DNA from: a virus
Taxonomy: Duplodnaviria; Caudoviricetes
Virus record (IMG/VR): IMGVR_UViG_3300039441_000062
Span: 1-43,239 of that record
Reading direction: 5' to 3' (one strand)
DNA length: 43,239 nucleotides
In this document: positions 390 to 36,206 of the stretch, in pieces
How positions within the stretch are numbered: the stretch's first letter is position 1
Layout: each line of letters opens with the position of its first letter
The notes under the pieces: model-generated
Database searches by the model: none
The model's input: the letters and a program-made list of their open reading frames with translations, nothing else
Told to the model about the DNA's origin: nothing
Made by a program: the position numbers and the translations under genes

Positions 390-1499
390 ATGGACGTGTT
401 CCTTGTTGGTTTACTTCTGATTTTCCGATCTTTCAAAACTTCTCTTGGCGATTTAACGCTCCTGCTGCTTCAACAGTTAGGAGCGATTTTGTTTTTAGGG
501 CCACAGGCTCTTGGTACAGGTATTGAGCCTAGCGGCGCTCTTGGTGGCAACGAACTATCGTATGTCACCCGGCGTTCGTATCTCGGCTATGCCTATGCCC
601 AGATCTGGAACACGTCACCAACCTTAGTTGGCTTGTTGTCGGCTGCGACCCGCGAACCGGGCGGGCTGGATAACATGATGATCAATGTCCAGTACCAAGC
701 GGGCACGGTCCCGACTTACACGACCTTTACCGGAAACTTCCCCGCGCCTCAACGCTTACAGATGGTTCAGCCGGCAGCATATCCTTACGCCTTAACGGTC
801 TGCCCGATTCCGGTCTATTTCGCGGAACAACTGATTCAGGACGATCAGAAGATCCAAGACATCATCGATTTGAGGATGACCGATTGCGGTAACTCGACTC
901 GTGACCTTTGGGCCAATTCGCTCTGGAGCACACCTGGATCGCTTCCGGCTAACGCGATTCTGCCGATCTCGAACTTGATTGATGATGGCACGAATTTCTC
1001 TACTCTCGGAACAATCACCCGTAGCGGAAACGTGTGGTGGCAGTCAAAGCGCTACAATGTCAACTCTTCCATTACTCGTCTTCTCACCCTGCTTTACATC
1101 GTTGGCGTCATTAAGCAGCAGGGTGAAAAGCCGGACTTCGGAGTTACTGGCCCTTCAACTTGGGCGCAGCTAGCTCAAGATTATATCCCGCCAGAGCGTT
1201 ATACCTCCCCCGGAGTTAGTCCTACTTACATGAGCGGGTTCGACGCCATCGAAGTCTGCGGTGTGCCTATCTATCTTGATCCCTACGCCCCCGAAGGTTC
1301 GATCTGGCTGTTCAACACCAACTACATCACGGCGCGGATTCACCAGATGGCCGACTGGGAAATGATCGATTTCGTTTCGATGTTGCCGAACTTCTCGCTT
1401 AACTGGATCGCAGCGGTCGTACACGCCATGCAAATCATCCAGACCAAGCCGCGTGCGAACGGTGTGCTCTACAATATCACTGGAACGATCTCGCTTTAA
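390..1499 (+). CDS. Major capsid protein (HK97-fold)
   Basis: ATG 390 follows scaffold stop at 376; motifs GTGIEPSG..ELSYVTRR, GTITRS..WW, KPDFGVTGPSTW, GVPIYLDPYAPEGSIWLFNT; position in head module. Confidence 0.85.
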   Translation: MDVFLVGLLLIFRSFKTSLGDLTLLLLQQLGAILFLGPQALGTGIEPSGALGGNELSYVTRRSYLGYAYAQIWNTSPTLVGLLSAATREPGGLDNMMINVQYQAGTVPTYTTFTGNFPAPQRLQMVQPAAYPYALTVCPIPVYFAEQLIQDDQKIQDIIDLRMTDCGNSTRDLWANSLWSTPGSLPANAILPISNLIDDGTNFSTLGTITRSGNVWWQSKRYNVNSSITRLLTLLYIVGVIKQQGEKPDFGVTGPSTWAQLAQDYIPPERYTSPGVSPTYMSGFDAIEVCGVPIYLDPYAPEGSIWLFNTNYITARIHQMADWEMIDFVSMLPNFSLNWIAAVVHAMQIIQTKPRANGVLYNITGTISL

Positions 1500-3919: not shown

Positions 3920-5757
3920 GTGGAGCTCTAGCAGAGTACGCACCAGACACGATTGTTTCGCGAGAACAGGAGCCGCCTAAGAAAAGCGAGCACGCGAGCG
4001 AATGGCAAATCCCGATGATCGGCACCTCGCCGGTGACCGGGTTGCCCGGTGCGCCGGTCTGGGGCGGGATCAATAAGTTTTCTCTGGGAAGCCGGTACTC
4101 TTGTGGTGATGCCGATAGCGATGACGAATACAACTGGTTACCGATGATCGGGACCAAGGTGCAACTCCCCACCCCTGGAACAACCATCGCGACCCTAATA
4201 GCAACGCTCATTTGGCAGACTGAGATCTATTTCAATAACAACCTGTACATGTTTTGCATGTGCTCGAACGGGCACCTTTATCAGGTCACAACCTCGGGCA
4301 CGATCACTGATATCTGGGCTACGGCGCAATTCAGTTTAACCGGCACGTTGAACGGTACGACTTCGGTGACCGGTATATCCAGCACCGCGAATATCTCAGT
4401 TGGGATGAGTGTTAGTGGAACTGACATTCAATCTGGAACGATCGTTACCCAGATCAATTCAGGTACCGCTATTACGATCAGTTTAGCCGCTACCGGCAGC
4501 ACGACCACTTCCCTTTCGTTTTCGACCCCGCTGTTTACAACTAGCGGCACCGTTGACATTAGCGTCTGGCAAAATACCAACATCCTGATTTCTGATAGTG
4601 CGGCTCAGAACATTTACAACTGGAACGGCACCCAGCTTTTCATCGCTTTAAATGCGCAACCGGTCCAATACATCACCGTTTTCCAGCAACGGCTCTGGAT
4701 GGGGTTTAACTCGACGGTCCAATGGACCAACATCAATACTTTCAATTCGCTCTCAGGCGATTCGGGCAGTTTCCTCATCACCGATGCGCAATGCTCAAAC
4801 CCAATTAATTGTTTACTAGATAGTCCGTTTGGCCTTTTCTTGAGTGGCTCGAACTGGATTAAGTTCATTACCAACTTGAACGATGTCGGTTCGCCGGCAG
4901 TTCTCACTTTCCAGCAAAACACGATTGAAGGTCAGATCGGTCCTTATAGCAAGTGGAGTGTACTGGTTGTTGGCGGCAGCATGTTTTTCGGGAATACAGC
5001 AGGCTATTGGCAATTGAACGGGTCACAGCCAGCCCAGATATCGAGTCCGTTCCTGAACCAGTTTTTCGCTAATTTTGCTTATCCACAGACTACTTTGAGC
5101 GCGACCTATGGGATGATCAATTCCGTGCCGTGCGTATTTTTCCAAGCCTATTACAACGGTGATCAGAATGTCTCGGCTGGTTACCGGCTCTTTGGTTATA
5201 CGCTTCAGGGCAATCAATGGTTCAGCGTGAATCAAGGCACGATTGCTTGGGTCAGCGGTGCTGTGTCGGTTGCGAACACAAACCAGAATCCCTTGATCTG
5301 GGCGTGTGACGGGACACACCTCTTTCAGATGTTCGCGGTTACGAACGTTGCCCAAAACTCGCAGTGGAACTCGAAACTGTGGACCATGGGAAGCCAACTC
5401 GATATCGACAATATCCTGAACGTTGCCCTCGAAGTGATTGCGAACGGCCCATGTACTATCACGGTTGGGATGGTCAATGAGACTAATATCGTGCAGTATA
5501 CCCCTCCAGCTCAGAGTATCACGCCAGGACTTTTGATCTGGACTAATAACCTTGGGCAAGTGATCCAGTTCGTGAACAATTCTGGCGCAGCTATCAATTT
5601 CATCGGCAACGGCAACCCTACTTATTTTTTGTTCCAATCGGACGGTCTTGGCCGATGCCGGCGCTTCGGGATCAACGCAACCGTAAACGGCGCCGGATGC
5701 GTTTTAGTGAGTGTTACGGTTAGCATCCACAAAACCGAGGCCAGCAGAGGTTCCTAG
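3916..5757 (+). CDS. Tail nozzle / packaged-DNA stabilisation protein (P22 gp10/T7 gp12-like beta-propeller)
   Basis: 613 aa, beta-propeller-like repeats (ITVFQQRLW, SVLVVGGSMFF), follows adaptor. Confidence 0.7.
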   Translation: MSGALAEYAPDTIVSREQEPPKKSEHASEWQIPMIGTSPVTGLPGAPVWGGINKFSLGSRYSCGDADSDDEYNWLPMIGTKVQLPTPGTTIATLIATLIWQTEIYFNNNLYMFCMCSNGHLYQVTTSGTITDIWATAQFSLTGTLNGTTSVTGISSTANISVGMSVSGTDIQSGTIVTQINSGTAITISLAATGSTTTSLSFSTPLFTTSGTVDISVWQNTNILISDSAAQNIYNWNGTQLFIALNAQPVQYITVFQQRLWMGFNSTVQWTNINTFNSLSGDSGSFLITDAQCSNPINCLLDSPFGLFLSGSNWIKFITNLNDVGSPAVLTFQQNTIEGQIGPYSKWSVLVVGGSMFFGNTAGYWQLNGSQPAQISSPFLNQFFANFAYPQTTLSATYGMINSVPCVFFQAYYNGDQNVSAGYRLFGYTLQGNQWFSVNQGTIAWVSGAVSVANTNQNPLIWACDGTHLFQMFAVTNVAQNSQWNSKLWTMGSQLDIDNILNVALEVIANGPCTITVGMVNETNIVQYTPPAQSITPGLLIWTNNLGQVIQFVNNSGAAINFIGNGNPTYFLFQSDGLGRCRRFGINATVNGAGCVLVSVTVSIHKTEASRGS

Positions 5758-5758
5758 T

Positions 5759-6574
5759 ATGGCTAATCGCGCAACACCGCTGACTTTCATCGAAACCCTA
5801 TCGGGCAACATTCTCGCTTCGACCTATTTCGATAACAATATCAGTCCGGCCTTTACGGCGATTAATGACGCCACTCTAGGCTGGGTCAACGGGATTGCGG
5901 TAGATTCTGGAAGTGCTAACAACTACGTTCTGACGCCTGTGTTCGGCGTCACCAGCTCGCCAAACCCTGGGATGTTAATTGCTTTTCTTCCGGCCAACAC
6001 CAATACCGGGGCGAGCAATCTGACCTTTGGTACGCTCACTTCTCAATCAATCGTGGATTGGGCCGGTAACCCGGTAGTACCGGGTGCGATTCAGGCCGGT
6101 AAACTTACTCTGGTTACTTACCTTTCGGGTGCATTCCGGTTGCTTTACACGACTGTGCCGGGAGTCTTTCTTTACAATTCGGCGTTACCGTCTGGTGGCG
6201 GCGCCGTCCAGATTAATTGCGCTGGTTATAGCCAGATCGCGATCATGCTCAATGCCGCTTCCTTAGGCAACCATACCTGGACCATTACCCTTAATGGCGC
6301 AGCCTGGGGTGCGCATATTGATGTACAGATTAGAACCGCTGGCGCTGCTCAAGTATTCAAATGGGGCGGGACCGATCAGGCCGGGAACTCGTTTAACAAT
6401 CTGCGTGCTTATTATCCAGTGACTTCAACCAGCGGTAACCTTGTTACCTTTCAGTTTACAAACTTAGCTACTGCCGGTGATAGCGCTCCTAATTTTTTAC
6501 AGTACAACGGAGCGGTGCTCCTAGATTCAGTAGCCAGTGTTACGAATCTGCAGTTCTTTGGGATCTACAACTAA
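5759..6574 (+). CDS. Tail fibre / receptor-binding protein
   Basis: DSGSANNYVLT...GMLIAFLPANTNTGASNL shoulder-type motif common in tail fibres; beta-rich C-terminus. Confidence 0.65.
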   Translation: MANRATPLTFIETLSGNILASTYFDNNISPAFTAINDATLGWVNGIAVDSGSANNYVLTPVFGVTSSPNPGMLIAFLPANTNTGASNLTFGTLTSQSIVDWAGNPVVPGAIQAGKLTLVTYLSGAFRLLYTTVPGVFLYNSALPSGGGAVQINCAGYSQIAIMLNAASLGNHTWTITLNGAAWGAHIDVQIRTAGAAQVFKWGGTDQAGNSFNNLRAYYPVTSTSGNLVTFQFTNLATAGDSAPNFLQYNGAVLLDSVASVTNLQFFGIYN

Positions 6575-7621: not shown

Positions 7622-9124
7622 ATGGGCGGTAAAGGTGGTGGTGGCGGTAACGTCCAGACTCCTTCACTGTACACTCCGAGCGGATTTTACCAAGGCTTGT
7701 CGGAGTTAGAAGGTCTCGGCACTTACGGACAATCGCTTTTCAATCCGCTAAGCTCAATGATCAATTGGGCGTCCAGCATCGCGACTGGCGGCGCTGCTGA
7801 GGGGATCGGTTCTTACGGCGCTAATTCGCTTGTTACCGGGCCGCAGATCAATATTGGCGGCAGTCATAAGCCAGCCGATCAATGGACGACACAGTTCAAT
7901 CCGCAGACCGGGCAGGTCACGCTCACCAACACAATGACGGGTGAGCAAATGATGGAAGGCGTCACTAGTCCACAGCTTCAATCTTGGTTCGCTAATCAGG
8001 GTGGTGGGCCGCAAACCCTACAGCAATGGACGCAGCAATGGCAGCAAGCGACCGGGGGCACCGGCACGAGTGGGGGAGGTGTTAGCACTGGTCCTTTCGG
8101 GCCGGGTGGACCGAATACCGGCTCTAACCCGATGCTGGCCGGAGGCGGCAACAACTGGGGTCCGCAGCTTAACGCGGCTTGGGATCAGATCGAGGGGATC
8201 GGTAACCTGGAAGCTGAGACGGGAGCTTGGACACGCGAACAGCAACTTCAGGCTGGTCAGCTTTACGGCGAAGGGCAAAAGATGCTTCGCCAAGCAACGA
8301 CAGGGCTGGGAACTTACCCGTCGCAGACTGCTTGGATTAATCAGGGGGTCAGCTCTGAACAAGCCAGTTTACAGCAGCAGTTGGCTAGTGAAGGACTAGG
8401 TTCATCTACTGCGGCTGGTGTGCTCAAAGGCGAAGCCGCGCAACAAGGCGCGGCGACAGCCGGCCAATTGATCGAGGGAAATATTTCTGCTGCTCAGAAT
8501 CAGATCGCTTTATCGCAAGCCTCTCAGAAGCTCGCTCTTGGCGGACAAGAATTAAGTCTAGGCGAGAACACGGCGATGGCTCAACTGTCGCTCGGGTTCC
8601 AGCAACAGATGTGGAGCCAAGCCATGCAAGGGTATGGCGCCATGGGATCACTAATGTCGACCTTGGGCAACTTGTACGGGATCGATATTCAGGGCTATTC
8701 GAATCTGCTCTCAAGCCATCTGCAAATGGCTCAACTGCAAGCGCAGGTTCAGGAAGCTGATGCTGGACTACAGGCGCAGGGCGCCGCATCGATGGGTAGC
8801 GGGCTCGGGAGCATCCTCGGATTACTTAGCGGCGGTGGCGGGGCGGGTGGTGGTGCCGGTGGTGGTGGAGGTGGCGGACTTCTAGGCGGGCTAGGCAGTT
8901 TGTTTGGCGGGATTGGCGGTACAACCGCAGGGGTGGGCGGATTAAGCGCTCTTGATTCCAGTGTGCTAGGGGGAGGTGCCGCTAGCGTGCTTGGCGGGAC
9001 TGGTGGCGCAGCGGCGGCTGGAGGTGGCGGTCTTCTAGGCGGGCTCGGTAGTCTGATTGGTGGTGCTGGAAGTGGCATTGGAAGTGCCATAGGCGGGTTA
9101 GTCGGATTAATCGCAGCATTTTAA
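7622..9124 (+). CDS. Ejection (pilot / DNA-transfer) protein with Gly-rich termini
   Basis: MGGKGGGGG N-terminus, Gln/Ala-rich helical core, hydrophobic glycine-zipper C-terminus; GGAGG at 7606-7610. Confidence 0.7.
   Translation: MGGKGGGGGNVQTPSLYTPSGFYQGLSELEGLGTYGQSLFNPLSSMINWASSIATGGAAEGIGSYGANSLVTGPQINIGGSHKPADQWTTQFNPQTGQVTLTNTMTGEQMMEGVTSPQLQSWFANQGGGPQTLQQWTQQWQQATGGTGTSGGGVSTGPFGPGGPNTGSNPMLAGGGNNWGPQLNAAWDQIEGIGNLEAETGAWTREQQLQAGQLYGEGQKMLRQATTGLGTYPSQTAWINQGVSSEQASLQQQLASEGLGSSTAAGVLKGEAAQQGAATAGQLIEGNISAAQNQIALSQASQKLALGGQELSLGENTAMAQLSLGFQQQMWSQAMQGYGAMGSLMSTLGNLYGIDIQGYSNLLSSHLQMAQLQAQVQEADAGLQAQGAASMGSGLGSILGLLSGGGGAGGGAGGGGGGGLLGGLGSLFGGIGGTTAGVGGLSALDSSVLGGGAASVLGGTGGAAAAGGGGLLGGLGSLIGGAGSGIGSAIGGLVGLIAAF
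8867..9064 (+). repeat. Internal duplication GGGGLLGGLGSL(F/I)GG
   Basis: Copies at 8867-8911 and 9020-9064, 14/15 aa identical. Confidence 0.85.
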
Positions 9125-9131
9125 AACGTCC

Positions 9132-9725
9132 ATGGTTAAATTCTCAGACGCATTTATCGGTAAGATCCAAGCCGCTAAAATGCGGTTTCCGGTTCGGGTG
9201 ACCTACCACGAGACACTCGAATTTTTGTACTGGGCGTGTTTAGCCAGTGAAAGGTTACTCAGTGAGGCTTCAGATGAATGTCTCGCCAGAGGTGATTGCG
9301 GAAAACTCGGCCTCTATTACCTCAATCATTTGGAAGAAGAAAAAGGTGAACTACCGTTTTTGGTGAACGATTTGAAAGCAGCCGGCAGAGAAATACAACC
9401 TTTGCCTGATCCAATCGCGATAGCGATGATCGGTACTCAGTACTATTTATTGAAACATGTTCACCCGGTCTGCTTGCTTGGTTATATGGCGGTACAAGAA
9501 GCGACCCCGACCCCACTTGAAGCAGTCGAGGTGTTTGAAAAGTACTATGGTTCAGAGCAAGTAACCTTTATTCGGATGCACGCTGAAAAAGATTTGATCC
9601 ATCGTGAAGAATTAATTGCGATGATCGAGGATTGTCCTGAAGATCAGCAAAGCTTGATTTATTTAAGTATCCAGAACACGCTTGATTATCTCGGTCAACA
9701 TTACGCGGGAGTAACCGATGGCTGA
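9132..9725 (+). CDS. Heme-oxygenase-like diiron oxidase (iron-containing redox enzyme; CADD/PqqC-like fold)
   Basis: Motifs YYLNHLEEEKG, IGTQYY...HPVCLLGYMAVQE, FIRMHAEKDLIH. Confidence 0.75.
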   Translation: MVKFSDAFIGKIQAAKMRFPVRVTYHETLEFLYWACLASERLLSEASDECLARGDCGKLGLYYLNHLEEEKGELPFLVNDLKAAGREIQPLPDPIAIAMIGTQYYLLKHVHPVCLLGYMAVQEATPTPLEAVEVFEKYYGSEQVTFIRMHAEKDLIHREELIAMIEDCPEDQQSLIYLSIQNTLDYLGQHYAGVTDG

Positions 9726-25021: not shown

Positions 25022-27232
25022 TTAGTTTGTTTGCAGCCAGAAAACTCTCCCATTAAAGTCGTCTTCCCAGAAAATATCTAGAGCCCCACCGATAGCCTGG
25101 CCGCTCAGCTCGCAGTCGATAGCGCCGTATACGTCGAATGCGCCGCACGGATTATTTCCGCTAGTTCCACCGCTTCCGAAGTTTGAAGACGGCGCATAGG
25201 TAGCGAGCGAATTCCCGTTCTTATCGAACCTCTGGATAACGCCACCGTTGTAAACGCCTACATTTTGTCCAACGATAAAGCCGCCAGTTGGAACAGGCGC
25301 GAGCGAATTAACATAAGGCGTAAATGTTTTTGTCCACAAGGGAGATCCTACGGGAGCGGTCCCCGTCTCAGCAAAAGCGATCACGGCATTCCCGCTGGTC
25401 CAAGAGCCTCCTCTGCTCGCGCCTGCCGGATTATATACCATCACATAAAGCTGGCCGTCTGTGAGGTTTAGATTAGCCACCTGAATGTCAATCTTATTGT
25501 TGCCTGGCGTTATCCCGAGCGCGTCGCAAAGCTGAGTGTTAGTCACTACTTCGACCGCATCCGCCCAATGATAGATGGGATTGCCTTGAGTATTAAGTCC
25601 ATGCAGAGGAACCGCCCAGAGTGATTGATATTCTAGCTGATAAGTTCCGTTTACTTGAATCTGACGGTAAAGCGTGGACACCCAGATCGTGCCGTTATCG
25701 TCCACGTTCATCCCCGATATAGCCCATTGCCAGTATGGCGATTTAGGAACCTCGTCTAAAGTTAATCCGGAGCCACCAAGTACCGTTTGCGCATTTACCG
25801 AGGTTAGTCCGGGGCCGTCAACGTCATTCCATGACCACAGATTCTGCGGCGGCGAAGCGGTCGTATAGAGCTGCCCATTAGCGGCAGGTGCGGATTGCGC
25901 TAGCACGCTAGCCATCTGGAGCGCTGGTCCATAACCGGCTCCCTGCGCCACCACCCGGTAAACGCACATATTGCCGCCCTCGCAGGGAAAATAGACAAAA
26001 TCATTACCCCCTAGGGTCAAGGCTCGCATAGTGCCGAATCGGGAGTTTTGAATATTCCCGAAGTAAGCCCCGTAGTCGGTTCTCGCGCATCCACTCCATC
26101 TCCCGACATTGGTTGAGCCTCGCGTGGCGTTGTACGTATTGCGATAGGAGCCAATTAACAGGTTCGGATTCGCTGCCGAGTGCGTCGCGTTTCCCTGGAA
26201 CTCCGTGCACATCCGGTTCCATGTGCCCATTAAGAGCATGCGCGAACCTTCGCCATTGCCGGGGGAGTGGCTAAATACCGTTTCTCCGGACGGATTAGAT
26301 GCAATCGCCCAGAGAGCGCCGATGGAATTTCCGCTGCTATACCCAGGAGTTTCAGGAACTCCAATCGTCTTCACGTAGCTAGCGCTAGTTCCCGAAATTG
26401 TGTACTGCCCAATGTGCGACGCTCCCCGATCCGCCACGTACAAAGTCGAGCCGGTGATCGCCAGGGAGTAAACATCGGAGAGTCCAGTGATTGGCGTGCC
26501 GAGCAGAACACCAGCCGAGGAGTAAACCTGGACAGTTGAATGCGCGCTTCCTACCCAGATGTTACCGGACGAATCGATTGCCAGGCCGATGGCAAGCGAC
26601 ACATTTATAGAAAGCTGCTGGACGCCGCTGGTCTTGTCATAGGCAAGTACCTTGCCACCATAGGAGTCAGTGACGTAAAGATTACTGCCTGATACCGCCA
26701 GCGCATGCAGCGGCACCTCCATGATTGCTTGATCGGCCGAGCTGGAGCCGGACGGGTAGGTGTATGTTCCGTTGGGGTACACCATGATGTGACCATTAGG
26801 ATCGGTCGTTGGGTTTACCCATGACGAAAATGGGATCAGTTGAGAGGAACCCGTGAGTGTCGCTTTCCAGACCGAAAACTCTAGGTTCTGCCGGTTAGGA
26901 TCTGCTGGGTTACCGATATAGCCAGCGCAATATGCGGCGCTTCCATCGGCCTCAACTGCGATAGCGTCCCAAAGCGCATAGCCTGCGACGTGGCCGCTAT
27001 GCCAAGCGTCGTATCCGTTGGAAGGATTCCGCCGAATAATGTCGTAATGCGGTTCATCCCAATCATGAACCGAATAAATATTGCCTGCCGCATCAAGGGC
27101 GAGGCCCGGTATGTACAACGGAATATGCCCCGTCGTTGTCTGGGGCTCACCGTTATTGCCGATTACCGAAATATTCTGGCAATAACCGGTGCCGGAGAAT
27201 GCTAAACACAGAAGAATCAGATAATGTTTCAC
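25022..27232 (-). CDS. Secreted NHL-repeat / beta-propeller protein (host-like moron)
   Basis: Signal peptide (V)KHYLILLCLAFSGTGYC; NHL-like repeats GLALDAAGNIY, ALAVSGSNLYVTD, GLAIDSSGNIWV, SLAITGSTLYVAD. Confidence 0.8.
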   Translation of the reverse strand: MKHYLILLCLAFSGTGYCQNISVIGNNGEPQTTTGHIPLYIPGLALDAAGNIYSVHDWDEPHYDIIRRNPSNGYDAWHSGHVAGYALWDAIAVEADGSAAYCAGYIGNPADPNRQNLEFSVWKATLTGSSQLIPFSSWVNPTTDPNGHIMVYPNGTYTYPSGSSSADQAIMEVPLHALAVSGSNLYVTDSYGGKVLAYDKTSGVQQLSINVSLAIGLAIDSSGNIWVGSAHSTVQVYSSAGVLLGTPITGLSDVYSLAITGSTLYVADRGASHIGQYTISGTSASYVKTIGVPETPGYSSGNSIGALWAIASNPSGETVFSHSPGNGEGSRMLLMGTWNRMCTEFQGNATHSAANPNLLIGSYRNTYNATRGSTNVGRWSGCARTDYGAYFGNIQNSRFGTMRALTLGGNDFVYFPCEGGNMCVYRVVAQGAGYGPALQMASVLAQSAPAANGQLYTTASPPQNLWSWNDVDGPGLTSVNAQTVLGGSGLTLDEVPKSPYWQWAISGMNVDDNGTIWVSTLYRQIQVNGTYQLEYQSLWAVPLHGLNTQGNPIYHWADAVEVVTNTQLCDALGITPGNNKIDIQVANLNLTDGQLYVMVYNPAGASRGGSWTSGNAVIAFAETGTAPVGSPLWTKTFTPYVNSLAPVPTGGFIVGQNVGVYNGGVIQRFDKNGNSLATYAPSSNFGSGGTSGNNPCGAFDVYGAIDCELSGQAIGGALDIFWEDDFNGRVFWLQTN

Positions 27233-27242
27233 GTTTGGCCTT

Positions 27243-27515
27243 TTATCCAAAAACTAGATCGTTGTCCAATTCTACTTCTTTAGGTTCTTCCGGAGGTTCC
27301 GGCTCCGATTCTATCACTTCCGGTTTTTCTCGTAACCTCCGGCTGATCTCCTTATCTAACAGCCAGCTATAAAACTGTTGTACACGTTTTTTAGGCACGA
27401 TCTCGCCGTGTTTCCAATACTGGAACGTGCGTAAACTAATTCCTAGCAGCTGGGCGGCTTCACTGTCGCCGCCCAACGCTTTCGCACCTGCCTTTAATGT
27501 TGTTCTGAATTCCAT
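27243..27515 (-). CDS. XRE/Cro-like helix-turn-helix regulator
   Basis: SEAAQLLGISLRTFQYWKHG..P. Confidence 0.8.
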   Translation of the reverse strand: MEFRTTLKAGAKALGGDSEAAQLLGISLRTFQYWKHGEIVPKKRVQQFYSWLLDKEISRRLREKPEVIESEPEPPEEPKEVELDNDLVFG

Positions 27516-32654: not shown

Positions 32655-32833
32655 CATTTCGCTACGAACTTTCGTTCGAGTTCCAGGCGGAAAATTTTAT
32701 CCACGCCCAGCGAATCGTTGAGCAAACTGCATTGATTGCCAGCGATCTGGTACAGACCGATGCGAAGTTGTTTGCGACCGAGGAAGCCATGGTGAAACAT
32801 TGGGAGCGAAACCCGGAGGTGCGCTGCGAATGA
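32651..32833 (+). CDS. Hypothetical protein
   Basis: MTFRYELSFEF...; GGAGG upstream; ATGA coupling on both sides. Confidence 0.6.
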   Translation: MTFRYELSFEFQAENFIHAQRIVEQTALIASDLVQTDAKLFATEEAMVKHWERNPEVRCE

Positions 32834-33312
32834 AACGGCGAAACTTTCTCGGGTTACTCGGGTTGGTAGCCGGCGCAGTCGGGCTCGGGATTAAGCCTTC
32901 CAAAACGCCTGATCCGGTTACGCGTGAAATCGTTGACCAGTACGCCGAATATCTCTCTGCTTTCGACGCAATCGAGGTGGGCGGAGTCCCGATCTATTGC
33001 GACCCGTATTGCCCGTCAAACAGCGTTTGCGTTCTGCCCGATAAGGTGGACCAGGCGCGCTGGTACGATGCGGACACGCCAGCCTGGGAAGAATGGTGCG
33101 AAAACCACACTAGCGGGGAACGCGCCATGGCACTGTGCTCGGTCGTTGCTTTTGTGAAAGAGTTTGGCGATCTGCCGAAATTCGGGATTGTTCACCCTTC
33201 GCATTGGGCCGCGATGCGTCAGGAAGAGTTAGCGAGCAGTAACGGCCAGCGGACAGTTCATTTCTGGGGCGAAAGTTTAGTAGTTAAACTTAACCGGTTA
33301 GCTCATGCCTGA
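32830..33312 (+). CDS. Twin-arginine-signal protein containing rearranged major-capsid-derived blocks
   Basis: GGAGG and ATG 32830; MKRRNFLGLLGLVAGAVGLG; 17/22 and 13/35 aa identity to two capsid segments. Confidence 0.8.
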   Translation: MKRRNFLGLLGLVAGAVGLGIKPSKTPDPVTREIVDQYAEYLSAFDAIEVGGVPIYCDPYCPSNSVCVLPDKVDQARWYDADTPAWEEWCENHTSGERAMALCSVVAFVKEFGDLPKFGIVHPSHWAAMRQEELASSNGQRTVHFWGESLVVKLNRLAHA

Positions 33313-33970
33313 GCTAGTGCCAACGGTCGCCGACGCTGAGACTAAATCCGACATTGTTGAGATTGGTTGGGAACTTTTCCCTGAACACATCCTTGAAGCC
33401 CTGGACCTGCTCATGGTTCACTTGTGCATTCACGAAAAGTTAGTTCGAAAACCCGTTTACGCTCGACCAAAACTTCATACGGGTAAGATACTTGACCCTG
33501 TACCGATGCGGCGGGCGATTCCTAATAAAGCCATATCGGCGGCGGCGCGTATTCTCTGGGTGGGTAGAAGTTATGCGCCCCAAGACGGCATGGCTTACTG
33601 GCATGTGGATAACTGGGGCACCTGGAAACAACGTCTGATCTTAGCCGGGATAGATCAAAAGACCTGCGAGGTAGATAATCATCGACGCTGGGCGTTCTGT
33701 TACATGCAACTAACCGAAGAAAGAAATCCGCACTTTAGTCAGACTCGCCAAGTGAAGTTAATCGATTCTAATTTACCTACGCCCGATCTGGTGCCGAAGG
33801 TTCATCAGAGAAAGGTGTTAACTAACAAAGCTAAGACGCGGATCAAGAAAAAGCTGAACGATAAAGCCAAGTGCGAGCAACAGGAACAGGAAGAACGCGG
33901 GTTTACTATGCATAATCTTGGTACCGTTAGCTCGGTTACTGATAGGTTTGGGCGCCGGATCGATTACTAA
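33305..33970 (+). CDS. Hypothetical protein upstream of TerL (terminase small subunit candidate by position only)
   Basis: 221 aa; TAATG-coupled to terL; no diagnostic motif recognised. Confidence 0.5.
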   Translation: MPELVPTVADAETKSDIVEIGWELFPEHILEALDLLMVHLCIHEKLVRKPVYARPKLHTGKILDPVPMRRAIPNKAISAAARILWVGRSYAPQDGMAYWHVDNWGTWKQRLILAGIDQKTCEVDNHRRWAFCYMQLTEERNPHFSQTRQVKLIDSNLPTPDLVPKVHQRKVLTNKAKTRIKKKLNDKAKCEQQEQEERGFTMHNLGTVSSVTDRFGRRIDY

Positions 33971-35913
33971 TGAAATTCGACCGGGAACATTTCCTAACCT
34001 TTGCTAGTAAGTTAACTATTCCTTCGAAGGAAGGTCAGGAAGATGAGGACGGCGGACACACTCAGTTAGTACCGCTGATCCCAATAGCCACTCAGCGTTA
34101 TTTTCTCGATAGGTTCGAGATCGGCTGGAAAAAAGGGATTCGGTTTTTCGTAGTCTTAAAGTGCCGGCAATCCGGTATGACCACCCTGGGCCTCGCCATG
34201 GATCTTTATTGGTCATTCATGGTGAAAGGATTGGTTCACAACTTTATCGGGGATACCGCCAAGGTCACGCATTACAACCGGAATTTGTGCCGGCGCTTTG
34301 TGCACAGCCTCCAGAAACATCCGGTGTGGCGTTACGAGATCGTGGACGACAACGAAGATCTGATGTCGTTCTCGAATGATTCGATTCTCAACTGGCACGT
34401 GGCTAACGTGCGCAGAGGTGGCGGGCTGGGCAGATCTATCGGTGCATCAGCCGCGCATGGGACCGAGGTCGGTGGCTGGGAAGATGAAGACGGCGCCGAT
34501 TCATTGATGTCGTCCCTGGCCGAGACGAGCCCGAACCGGGTGTTCCTATGGGAAGGAACAGCCAGCGGGCCTGGGTTCTTCCAAGACATGTGCAAGGGCG
34601 CGGCTCGTGGGACCGAATCAACCGAGATGTTCATTTTCATCGGCTGGTGGCTGCATCCCTGGTACCGGATGTATCCAGATCGGTTCGAGCAACACCAGCA
34701 GATCTATCAGATTTACTGGGAATCTAATCCGGTCTTGAGCCGGGAAGAACTGTTCTGGGTAGATATGGTGAAGCGACGGTACGGATTCACGATTGAGCCT
34801 GAGCAGATGGCTTGGTGGCGCTGGCATCTGAAGCAGCGTAAACGCGGCAACCTGGACATGATGTATCAGGAATACCCACCTATCCCTGAGAAAGCGTGGC
34901 AATACGGCGCGAGAAGCTTCTTCGCGTCAAATCGGTTGATTGAACGCGAAACCATCATTGTCGAAACTCGAGATGACCACAAAGATTATTTTCGGTTCCA
35001 ACTCAAGTTGGGAAGGGACACGACTCATTTCAATGACTCGGATTTAGTGCGGGTTGATCCGAAAGAAAATTTTTACGATATCGTGATGTGGGATCCGCCC
35101 CAGCCGCACCATGATCTTTACCGAACCGTGATCGGAGTGGACCCTATTCATGGTGCCGACGAACAATCCAATGAGGCGGCAGTGCAGGTATTCATTTGCT
35201 ACACTGATTGTTATGTGCAGGCTGCAGAGTTTAGTTCGAGCGGTATCCCTGCTTTCCAGCTTGCTTGGGTGGTGCTGCACTTAGCAGCGATCTATGGCGG
35301 TAATCCGCTTCTGTGTACCGAGCTTCAAGGCGGTGGGTTCGAGCTTCAGAACGAGATTCGCCGGCTACAGAACGGATTAGCTTTCGGCTATAGCAAGGTT
35401 TTAGAAAAAGCCTTCAGCGGATTACAGCATTACCGGTGGACACCGCTCGACCGGCAGCATCCAGGGACCGGTCAATCGCTTCATTACAAAACAACCCAAG
35501 AATCCAAGGAAGTAATGCTGGAAGCGCTCAAGCATTATTTCGAGCGCAACATGTGTCTGGTGCGCAGCCCACGGTTACTGAAACAGATGGCGTCTTGCTC
35601 ATGGACAAAGCAAGGTGATCTCGATGTGCCGCGTCCGAGCGATCTCGTGATGGCGGCAGGGTTCGCTACTATGGCGTATAAACAGTGTCTTGATACCGAT
35701 ATCGGAGGGACGAACCATACCCGAGCAGCCTGGGAAAAACATCTGCGAGAGTCACAAGGCCAGACCCGAGAAGAGTTCTTGTGTAACATGCTACAGAATT
35801 GGGCTGATACCCGTACTTTACAAGTCCATCAAGAAGAACTAGAAATGCAAGAACTCCGTGAAGCGCGCGAGGGGTTGGCCGATGATCGCGGTTGGACAAG
35901 GTTGAACCGATGA
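33970..35913 (+). CDS. terL: Terminase large subunit
   Basis: Walker A LKCRQSGMTT, Walker B AHGTEV, coupling motif WEGTASG, QEYP, RNase H-like VIGVDP and SDLVMA. Confidence 0.93.
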   Translation: MKFDREHFLTFASKLTIPSKEGQEDEDGGHTQLVPLIPIATQRYFLDRFEIGWKKGIRFFVVLKCRQSGMTTLGLAMDLYWSFMVKGLVHNFIGDTAKVTHYNRNLCRRFVHSLQKHPVWRYEIVDDNEDLMSFSNDSILNWHVANVRRGGGLGRSIGASAAHGTEVGGWEDEDGADSLMSSLAETSPNRVFLWEGTASGPGFFQDMCKGAARGTESTEMFIFIGWWLHPWYRMYPDRFEQHQQIYQIYWESNPVLSREELFWVDMVKRRYGFTIEPEQMAWWRWHLKQRKRGNLDMMYQEYPPIPEKAWQYGARSFFASNRLIERETIIVETRDDHKDYFRFQLKLGRDTTHFNDSDLVRVDPKENFYDIVMWDPPQPHHDLYRTVIGVDPIHGADEQSNEAAVQVFICYTDCYVQAAEFSSSGIPAFQLAWVVLHLAAIYGGNPLLCTELQGGGFELQNEIRRLQNGLAFGYSKVLEKAFSGLQHYRWTPLDRQHPGTGQSLHYKTTQESKEVMLEALKHYFERNMCLVRSPRLLKQMASCSWTKQGDLDVPRPSDLVMAAGFATMAYKQCLDTDIGGTNHTRAAWEKHLRESQGQTREEFLCNMLQNWADTRTLQVHQEELEMQELREAREGLADDRGWTRLNR

Positions 35914-36206
35914 GTCTTTATAGCAGGCATAAAATCGAACGTGTGGAAAAGCCGTTCGCGCGCAAGGATTCGTTATACTGGTTGTTCGCGTTCGACCACG
36001 TTGACCTACGGGACAGTGAGCGTTGGTTCTGGTATAAGGGCGTACACAAACGGTTGCGCGAGGTTTATTGGATGCGTCGACGAAGAATCTGGCGAGATGT
36101 TGCCAAAGCAATGGTTGTTCAGATTTATAATTCTAGTCCATTAATTTTATCGCTTATAGACGATGCAAAAACAGACCAACATCAAACGGATGCGCAAGAT
36201 GATTAA
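35910..36206 (+). CDS. Hypothetical protein ending in a capsid-N-terminus-like motif
   Basis: ATGA-coupled to terL; VVQIYNSSPLILSLI versus capsid YAQIWNTSPTLVGLL. Confidence 0.55.
   Translation: MSLYSRHKIERVEKPFARKDSLYWLFAFDHVDLRDSERWFWYKGVHKRLREVYWMRRRRIWRDVAKAMVVQIYNSSPLILSLIDDAKTDQHQTDAQDD

Follow-up and report, generated by a model that had tools for sequence, protein, structure and literature searches.

A leader-bearing gene with capsid-like blocks upstream of the large terminase

The window, by which we mean the whole stretch of 43,239 nucleotides analyzed here, is a circularly permuted phage genome with a terminal repeat of 147 bp. The features with which this work is concerned are as follows.

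489..1499, plus strand: major capsid protein with the HK97 fold, NF033394 family; block A at 1077-1181, block B at 1227-1292
32815..32819, plus strand: GGAGG, likely ribosome-binding site, 10 nt 5' of the ATG of the next entry
32830..33312, plus strand: gene for a leader and a (predicted) permuted capsid domain, an ORF of 160 aa
32830..32910, plus strand: Tat-like leader, with RRxFL (residues 3-7), a Gly-rich hydrophobic stretch (residues 8-21), a basic c-region and no AxA
32947..33039, plus strand: block B, residues 40-70; three predicted strands equivalent to capsid strands 253-256, 259-263 and 272-275
33040..33117, plus strand: variable linker, residues 71-96, from the end of B to the start of A; lengths differ in the family; pLDDT 66-84
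33118..33231, plus strand: block A, residues 97-134; predicted helix-strand-helix equivalent to capsid 197-211, 217-220 and 222-230
33232..33309, plus strand: variable C-terminal tail of low confidence (pLDDT < 50 at residues 139-160)
33970..35913, plus strand: large terminase, given for context (phrog_2, E 3.3e-8)
35910..36206, plus strand: second capsid-fragment gene, directly 3' of the terminase; no Tat-like leader; N-arm piece at 36099-36176

The product of the ORF at 32830-33312 begins with MKRRNFLGLLGLVAGAVGLG. Its start overlaps the stop of the preceding gene (ATGA), and its 3' end overlaps the start of the next gene at 33305. The ORF lies 0.66 kb 5' of the large terminase and about 10.3 kb 5' of the capsid gene, all on one strand. 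An earlier note on this DNA had located it in the replication-to-terminase region and away from the head genes. The second part of this placement needs correction, as the genome is circularly permuted and the gene sits at the edge of the packaging and head region. A promoter scan of the window gave no signal above chance, none of the RNA sequencing runs was listed as holding the ORF, and two DNA sequencing runs, one of which may be the source of the window, showed no differing letters within it. The host search returned four genome matches, all of them capsids and just 35-40% identical, and the search of GenBank phages returned distant capsids only.

Elsewhere in the window we note a 79% direct repeat (8842-8910 and 8993-9063) inside a 500-aa gene, a haem-oxygenase-like iron redox protein at 9132-9725 (PF14518, E 3e-6, just under the cut-off) and, on the minus strand at 25022-27250, a 742-aa protein with beta-propeller repeats.

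The phage's own major capsid protein matches NF033394 with 128.4 bits (cut-off 80) and phrog_9953 with an E of 1.8e-13. A Foldseek search with its predicted model (pLDDT 74) recovers cyanophage, SU10 and HK97 capsids (best E 4.6e-14), and the nearest solved structures are those of cyanophage Mic1 (6j3q), A-1(L) (7f38) and SU10 (7z48). We infer a start at TTG 489 from an upstream GGAG and an alignment of 29 capsids. The gene that follows the capsid (1503-2042) has partial homologs located 5' of the capsid in L027-L029 and L031. In another locus (L023:17926-19629) the capsid lies within a 568-aa open frame that is about 230 aa longer at the start than its relatives, where a scaffold fusion is possible.

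Two capsid segments recur in swapped order

Aligned without gaps, block B of the ORF (32950-33015) and capsid positions 1227-1292 are identical at 17 of 22 residues (42/66 in the DNA), and block A (33121-33225) and capsid positions 1077-1181 are identical at 13 of 35 (56/105 in the DNA). The blocks follow each other as A-B in the capsid and as B-A in the ORF. Since the linker connects B, at its end, with the beginning of A, this arrangement amounts to a permutation. Both blocks and their swapped order had been described in the earlier note, and our measurements agree with that description, as they do with its observation that most shared residues are encoded by synonymous codons (different codons at 19 of the 30 identical residues in the two blocks).

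The match is also recovered at the level of the genome: tblastn of the ORF against the whole window finds the capsid at 3.5e-8 and 2.6e-5, with the next non-self match at 1.2. Pairwise BLASTP of the ORF against the capsid gives E values of 5e-10 and 2e-7, and profile-profile comparison of block B with the capsid gives a probability of 98.6 and an E of 7.7e-16. Against the NF033394 model, the ORF has no match at E up to 1, and three of its relatives score 14.5-21 bits (cut-off 80). Several residues that are invariant in 39 capsids (R98, K110, P116, G52, P54, D58, P59 and Y60) are kept in six or seven of the seven family members that hold both blocks, and the capsid-invariant E213, T224 and G270 are mostly altered in these members.

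AlphaFold, run on the ORF with an alignment of eight rows, gave a mean pLDDT of 68.9, with values of 77-90 at residues 41-80 and 101-130 and below 50 at residues 20-32 and 139-160. In the predicted models, capsid strands 253-256, 259-263 and 272-275 have their counterparts in ORF strands 47-50, 53-57 and 65-69, and capsid 197-211, 217-220 and 222-230 are matched by ORF helix 97-112, strand 118-121 and helix 123-135. The core of the ORF is predicted to repeat the six strands and helices of the capsid one to one, in permuted order.

From the anatomy of HK97, we take the elements in capsid 197-275 to be the axial (A) domain. On this assignment the ORF is predicted to be a circular permutant of the A-domain whose new ends fall in the loop that separates the two blocks, and it is here that the leader is joined. 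The same label had been applied in the earlier note; the order of the elements agrees with it, but a Foldseek search of the ORF model against PDB and BFVD found no match, to a capsid or otherwise, at E up to 0.001. Structure searches of the Atlas gave matches of 0.78 or less and none for the relative P0003, and with the ORF model they reached a TM of 0.36 at best.

A small and patchily distributed family

A phmmer search of 1.84 billion representatives (E up to 0.001) returned nine proteins, namely the query, one full capsid and seven short proteins of 88-198 aa. The leader is present in six of the seven short proteins (P0005 has none, and its start may be incomplete), and the order of block B, variable linker and block A is likewise present in six (P0006 has block B only). 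These relatives are 29-40% identical to the query, and their clusters contain one to three members each. The shared leader, block order and open frame in such diverged relatives support the view that this is a conserved gene rather than a decaying duplicate.

The genomic context of the relatives comes from P0006 (L039) alone; a search for the contig of P0010 had no match. P0006 is flanked by homologs of two genes of the window, the zinc-ribbon gene on one side (E 2e-17) and the presumed portal gene on the other (E 4e-18), where the portal label is based on position and a weak Pfam match (E 0.058).

Word-index protein searches with the query alone and with the block-B region found nothing new, and the family profile found just three known members and one capsid. 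A DNA pattern for the leader plus block B had no match in viral contigs or in genomes; its three matches in metagenomes are the DNA of the window itself (L038), P0006 (L039) and, by coincidence, a bacterial gene (L040). A set of 130 sequences, made up of the window and 129 loci (many of them short and some redundant), has short genes for capsid fragments in the window, its duplicate L038, L039 and L053, and no short portal or terminase fragments were seen in the loci examined. The capsid is the sole match in five related records (one complete, four partial), and a leader-plus-capsid mini-gene occurs in one among five other related records. The gene is accessory and patchy among related records.

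Relationship to the phage's own capsid

When blocks A and B together are compared with 96 distinct capsids, the phage's own capsid ranks first (176 vs 165). The same holds for block A on its own and for the initial half of block B. For the second (3') half of block B it ranks 84 of 96, a figure that is biased because the capsid set was fetched partly via the block-B motif. Higher scores than with the own capsid are obtained with family relatives, both for block A (102 for P0003 and 103 for P0004, vs 76) and for block B (122 for P0008 and 120 for P0003, vs 100), and P0003 and P0004 are nearer to the query than the own capsid is in both blocks.

We further placed the family in a tree of 69 columns and 46 rows, comprising 39 of the 96 capsids and the seven two-block members (P0006 was left out). 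The seven members fall on one side of a branch with a support of 81/95, which is not starred, and their branches are long. A placement of the ORF as sister of the own capsid, as for a recent duplicate, is rejected by the AU test (p=0.021).

The earlier note had named the phage's own capsid as the source of the blocks. This is right to the extent that the own capsid is the best of the 96 for both blocks together, but it does not extend to direct descent, given the closer relatives P0003 and P0004 and the rejected sister pairing. Sequence comparison indicates that the ORF is an old paralog, older than the own capsid, and not a fresh copy. One old origin near the lineage of the own capsid is the simplest reading.

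A Tat-like leader

The leader of the ORF is Tat-like and is a candidate export signal. Its motif, RRNFL, precedes a hydrophobic h-region with a GRAVY of 2.12 and five Gly, followed by two K/R. It passes the cut-off of TIGR01409 (18.6 bits, cut-off 16.7) and falls below that of PF10518 (13.5 bits, cut-off 22.7). Among the seven family leaders, the query is the one that reaches the TIGR01409 cut-off (P0006 scores 15.7 and the other five have no match); RR is present in three and RK in four. The twin-arginine leader claimed in the earlier note accordingly holds for the query, with its RRxFL and hydrophobic stretch, but is weaker for its relatives, which mostly have RK and score below the cut-off. 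One study reports that lysine swaps in the twin-arginine motif are poorly tolerated and that a signal whose arginine is unpaired can still use Tat if its h-region is hydrophobic (PMC5539426).

A hydrophobic stretch rich in Gly, followed by a basic c-region, is common to all eight leaders considered (the seven of the family and that of the L053 mini-gene described below), with GRAVY values of 0.91-2.23 and two to four K/R. An AxA site is found in two of the eight and is absent in the query. Uncleaved Tat anchors exist, so this absence argues against release and not against targeting.

The capsid of the window has an RR pair of its own at residues 28-29 (gene start 489), which is invariant in 29 capsids and stands in a Tat-motif-like context without a hydrophobic stretch. 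Derivation of the leader from this motif was considered and rejected, as none of the eight leaders beats shuffles against capsid N-arms. By this comparison the leader is a module separate from the capsid.

Similar leaders on other phage proteins

Leaders of this type are also found on other passengers. In the complete relative L053, a mini-gene at 5609-5863 encodes an 84-aa product made of a leader and a capsid N-arm piece, for which its own capsid ranks first of 96. This mini-gene occupies the same slot as P0006, after the zinc-ribbon gene and before the presumed portal gene. A search with it returned ten loci, which represent itself and six other distinct proteins with similar leaders. One of these loci, L137:8990-9214, which was chosen partly for its likeness to capsid, encodes a 74-aa product of leader and N-arm piece that matches its own NF033394 capsid (L147:1483-2451) at 53% over 32 aa. 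In L140:10001-10171, a similar leader is joined to a 34-aa segment that copies, at 82%, an excisionase-type HTH gene located 600 bp upstream; judged from this copy, the tail is a recent capture of a non-structural gene. The tail of L141:1803-2171 matches a head-scaffolding family (E 3.5e-5), and its record, which is partial, shows no second copy; that of L142:4152-4391 weakly resembles its own capsid (E 0.02). In L138/139 the tail weakly matches an unnamed protein, and the tails in L143-145 have no recognized match.

The second capsid-fragment gene of the window (35910-36206) matches the capsid profile with an E of 4.2e-4 in a search within the window genome. Its N-arm piece agrees with the L053 capsid at 11/11 positions, a score that none of 2000 shuffles equals (not corrected for the choice among 96 capsids). 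Capsids of other phages are closer to this piece than the own capsid, which ranks 89 of 96. Four arginines stand just before the N-arm piece, and there is no hydrophobic leader.

A possible bait for capsid-sensing receptors and its alternatives

Our preferred reading, to which we assign a probability of roughly 35%, is that the product of the ORF may serve as a bait for host capsid-sensing immune receptors that read the A-domain. According to one study, Avs7, Avs8 and Avs10 recognize the penton- and hexon-forming face of the A-domain by shape (from cryo-EM for Avs7 and models for Avs8 and Avs10), the Avs7 sensor also touches the P-domain and the E-loop, and phages are described as having difficulty in mutating away from receptors of the capsid fold (PMC12803255). 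A bioRxiv preprint on CapRel reports a contact with a loop of the A-domain (10.1101/2022.05.30.493996), and in Tat transport signal-less partners can travel as hitchhikers (PMC4273604). In favor of the bait we also count the relatives that share the leader (six) and the B-A order (six), the capsid-invariant residues kept in both blocks, the predicted core, the separateness of the leader and its use on N-arm pieces in L053 and L137, and the accessory nature of the gene.

As a bait, the permuted capsid segments would refold as a stand-alone A-domain in the cytoplasm; going by the models, we infer that the permutant keeps the shape of the A-domain and loses the rest of the capsid. The protein would be made before the capsid, as inferred from the position of its gene upstream of the terminase. 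The A-domain mimic would bind a receptor that reads the A-domain and, without the P-domain and E-loop contacts, would leave the bound receptor off. It would then drag the receptor to the membrane, or have it exported by the Tat translocase as a hitchhiker, and real capsids would assemble unnoticed. A broader proposal, in which phages carry modular export-tagged mimics of their conserved proteins, the permuted A-domain captures receptors and Tat pins or removes them ("deportation"), seems to us unlikely.

Several points speak against the bait. Most leaders of the family score below the Tat cut-off and read RK, the structure searches with the ORF model recovered no capsid, and E213, T224 and G270 are mostly altered in the two-block members. 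A mimic of the fold could switch the receptor on rather than block it. Export would take the bait out of the cytoplasm, and P0006, which has block B only, cannot form an A-domain. Moreover, the HTH tail of L140 and the several tails without a clear source suggest that the tail may matter less than the leader. It is conceivable, if somewhat doubtful, that the leader is the working part, engaging or jamming the Tat translocase or the inner membrane, and that the tail is any small folded piece drawn from the genes of the phage itself. Similar leaders are indeed attached to the permuted A-domain, to N-arm pieces (L053, L137), to the HTH (L140) and to unrelated tails (L138/139, L141, L143-145); P0006 retains the leader with block B alone, and the scarcity of AxA sites points the same way. 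Such a role for the leader does not readily account for the capsid-invariant residues that are kept in the permuted core across relatives only 29-40% identical to the query, for P0005, which has both blocks and no leader (subject to its possibly incomplete start), or for the gene at 35910-36206, a capsid piece without a leader.

The patchy occurrence of the gene in related records would also suit a weapon against competing phages, in which the capsid piece, held at the membrane or exported, would spoil the assembly of related capsids or prevent superinfection. Other family capsids are the better match for the 3' half of block B, and foreign capsids for the gene at 35910-36206, but the former rank carries the bias of the block-B motif used in fetching the capsid set, and the own capsid ranks first for both blocks together, just as the L053 capsid does for its mini-gene. 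The 45 scanned frames of the window included no recognized integrase or repressor, which also counts against a weapon, and we regard this explanation as improbable on balance.

The standing of the own capsid as best match can equally be read in favor of an aid to the phage's own head assembly, with an uncleaved anchor holding capsomers or procapsids at the inner membrane via A-domain contacts, or tuning capsid supply. The query leader without an AxA site and the position of P0006 and the L053 mini-gene between the zinc-ribbon and presumed portal genes are consistent with this. Close relatives with 53-55% identical capsids, however, have no such gene in the sequenced parts of their four incomplete records, and the family members are nearer to each other than to any sampled capsid, which means that they do not change in step with the capsid; an assembly role is quite unlikely in our view. 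Least probable by far is neutrality, with the ORF as a decaying partial duplicate whose leader arose by chance. The small family with its clusters of one to three members and long branches would fit such a duplicate, but the features common to diverged relatives, the different codons at 19 of 30 shared residues and the overlaps of start and stop with neighboring genes all argue against it.

Comparison with known systems and implications

Relative to NF033394 (capsid_maj_Podo) capsids of the HK97 fold, blocks A and B of the ORF are homologous to capsid residues about 197-275 and have the same predicted elements. The ORF keeps about 70 of 336 residues, in swapped order, lacks the N-arm, the long helix and the C-terminal strands, and has gained a hydrophobic leader. 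With Tat signal peptides (TIGR01409 and PF10518; uncleaved anchors and the hitchhiker carriers PaoA and HybO), it shares RRxFL, the Gly-rich stretch and the basic c-region. It differs from these in being phage-encoded, in its apparently capsid-derived passenger, in the RK of four of the seven members and in the mostly missing AxA.

Capsid paralogs of large phages, such as T4 gp24 and the SPN3US paralogs, are near full-length virion proteins that arose by duplication of the capsid gene. The ORF likewise stems from a capsid-gene duplication, but it retains only part of the capsid, in permuted form, bears an export-type leader and belongs to a phage of 43 kb.

If the role proposed for the ORF is correct, it would resemble the T7 DNA mimic Ocr (PMC12409349), a small accessory phage protein that imitates a molecule read by a defence, and the DarT-binding protein Gp145 of ICP1 (PMC13728456), a small accessory counter-defence protein. 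Unlike both, it would imitate a structural protein of the phage itself and carry a targeting leader. The literature covered, which includes the available parts of the reviews PMC13728456 and PMC12409349 and excludes most subscription papers and supplements, contained no description of Tat-tagged capsid fragments, nor of the reuse of one export-type leader on pieces of phage proteins.

Such reuse is what the loci described here point to, with phages attaching the same export-type leader to parts of proteins that they encode themselves. Whatever its function, the ORF represents a natural circular permutant of a capsid domain that is predicted to fold alone. If the bait reading is true, phages would have a direct answer to receptors that read the capsid fold, in the form of a small imitation of the A-domain that bears a targeting tag.
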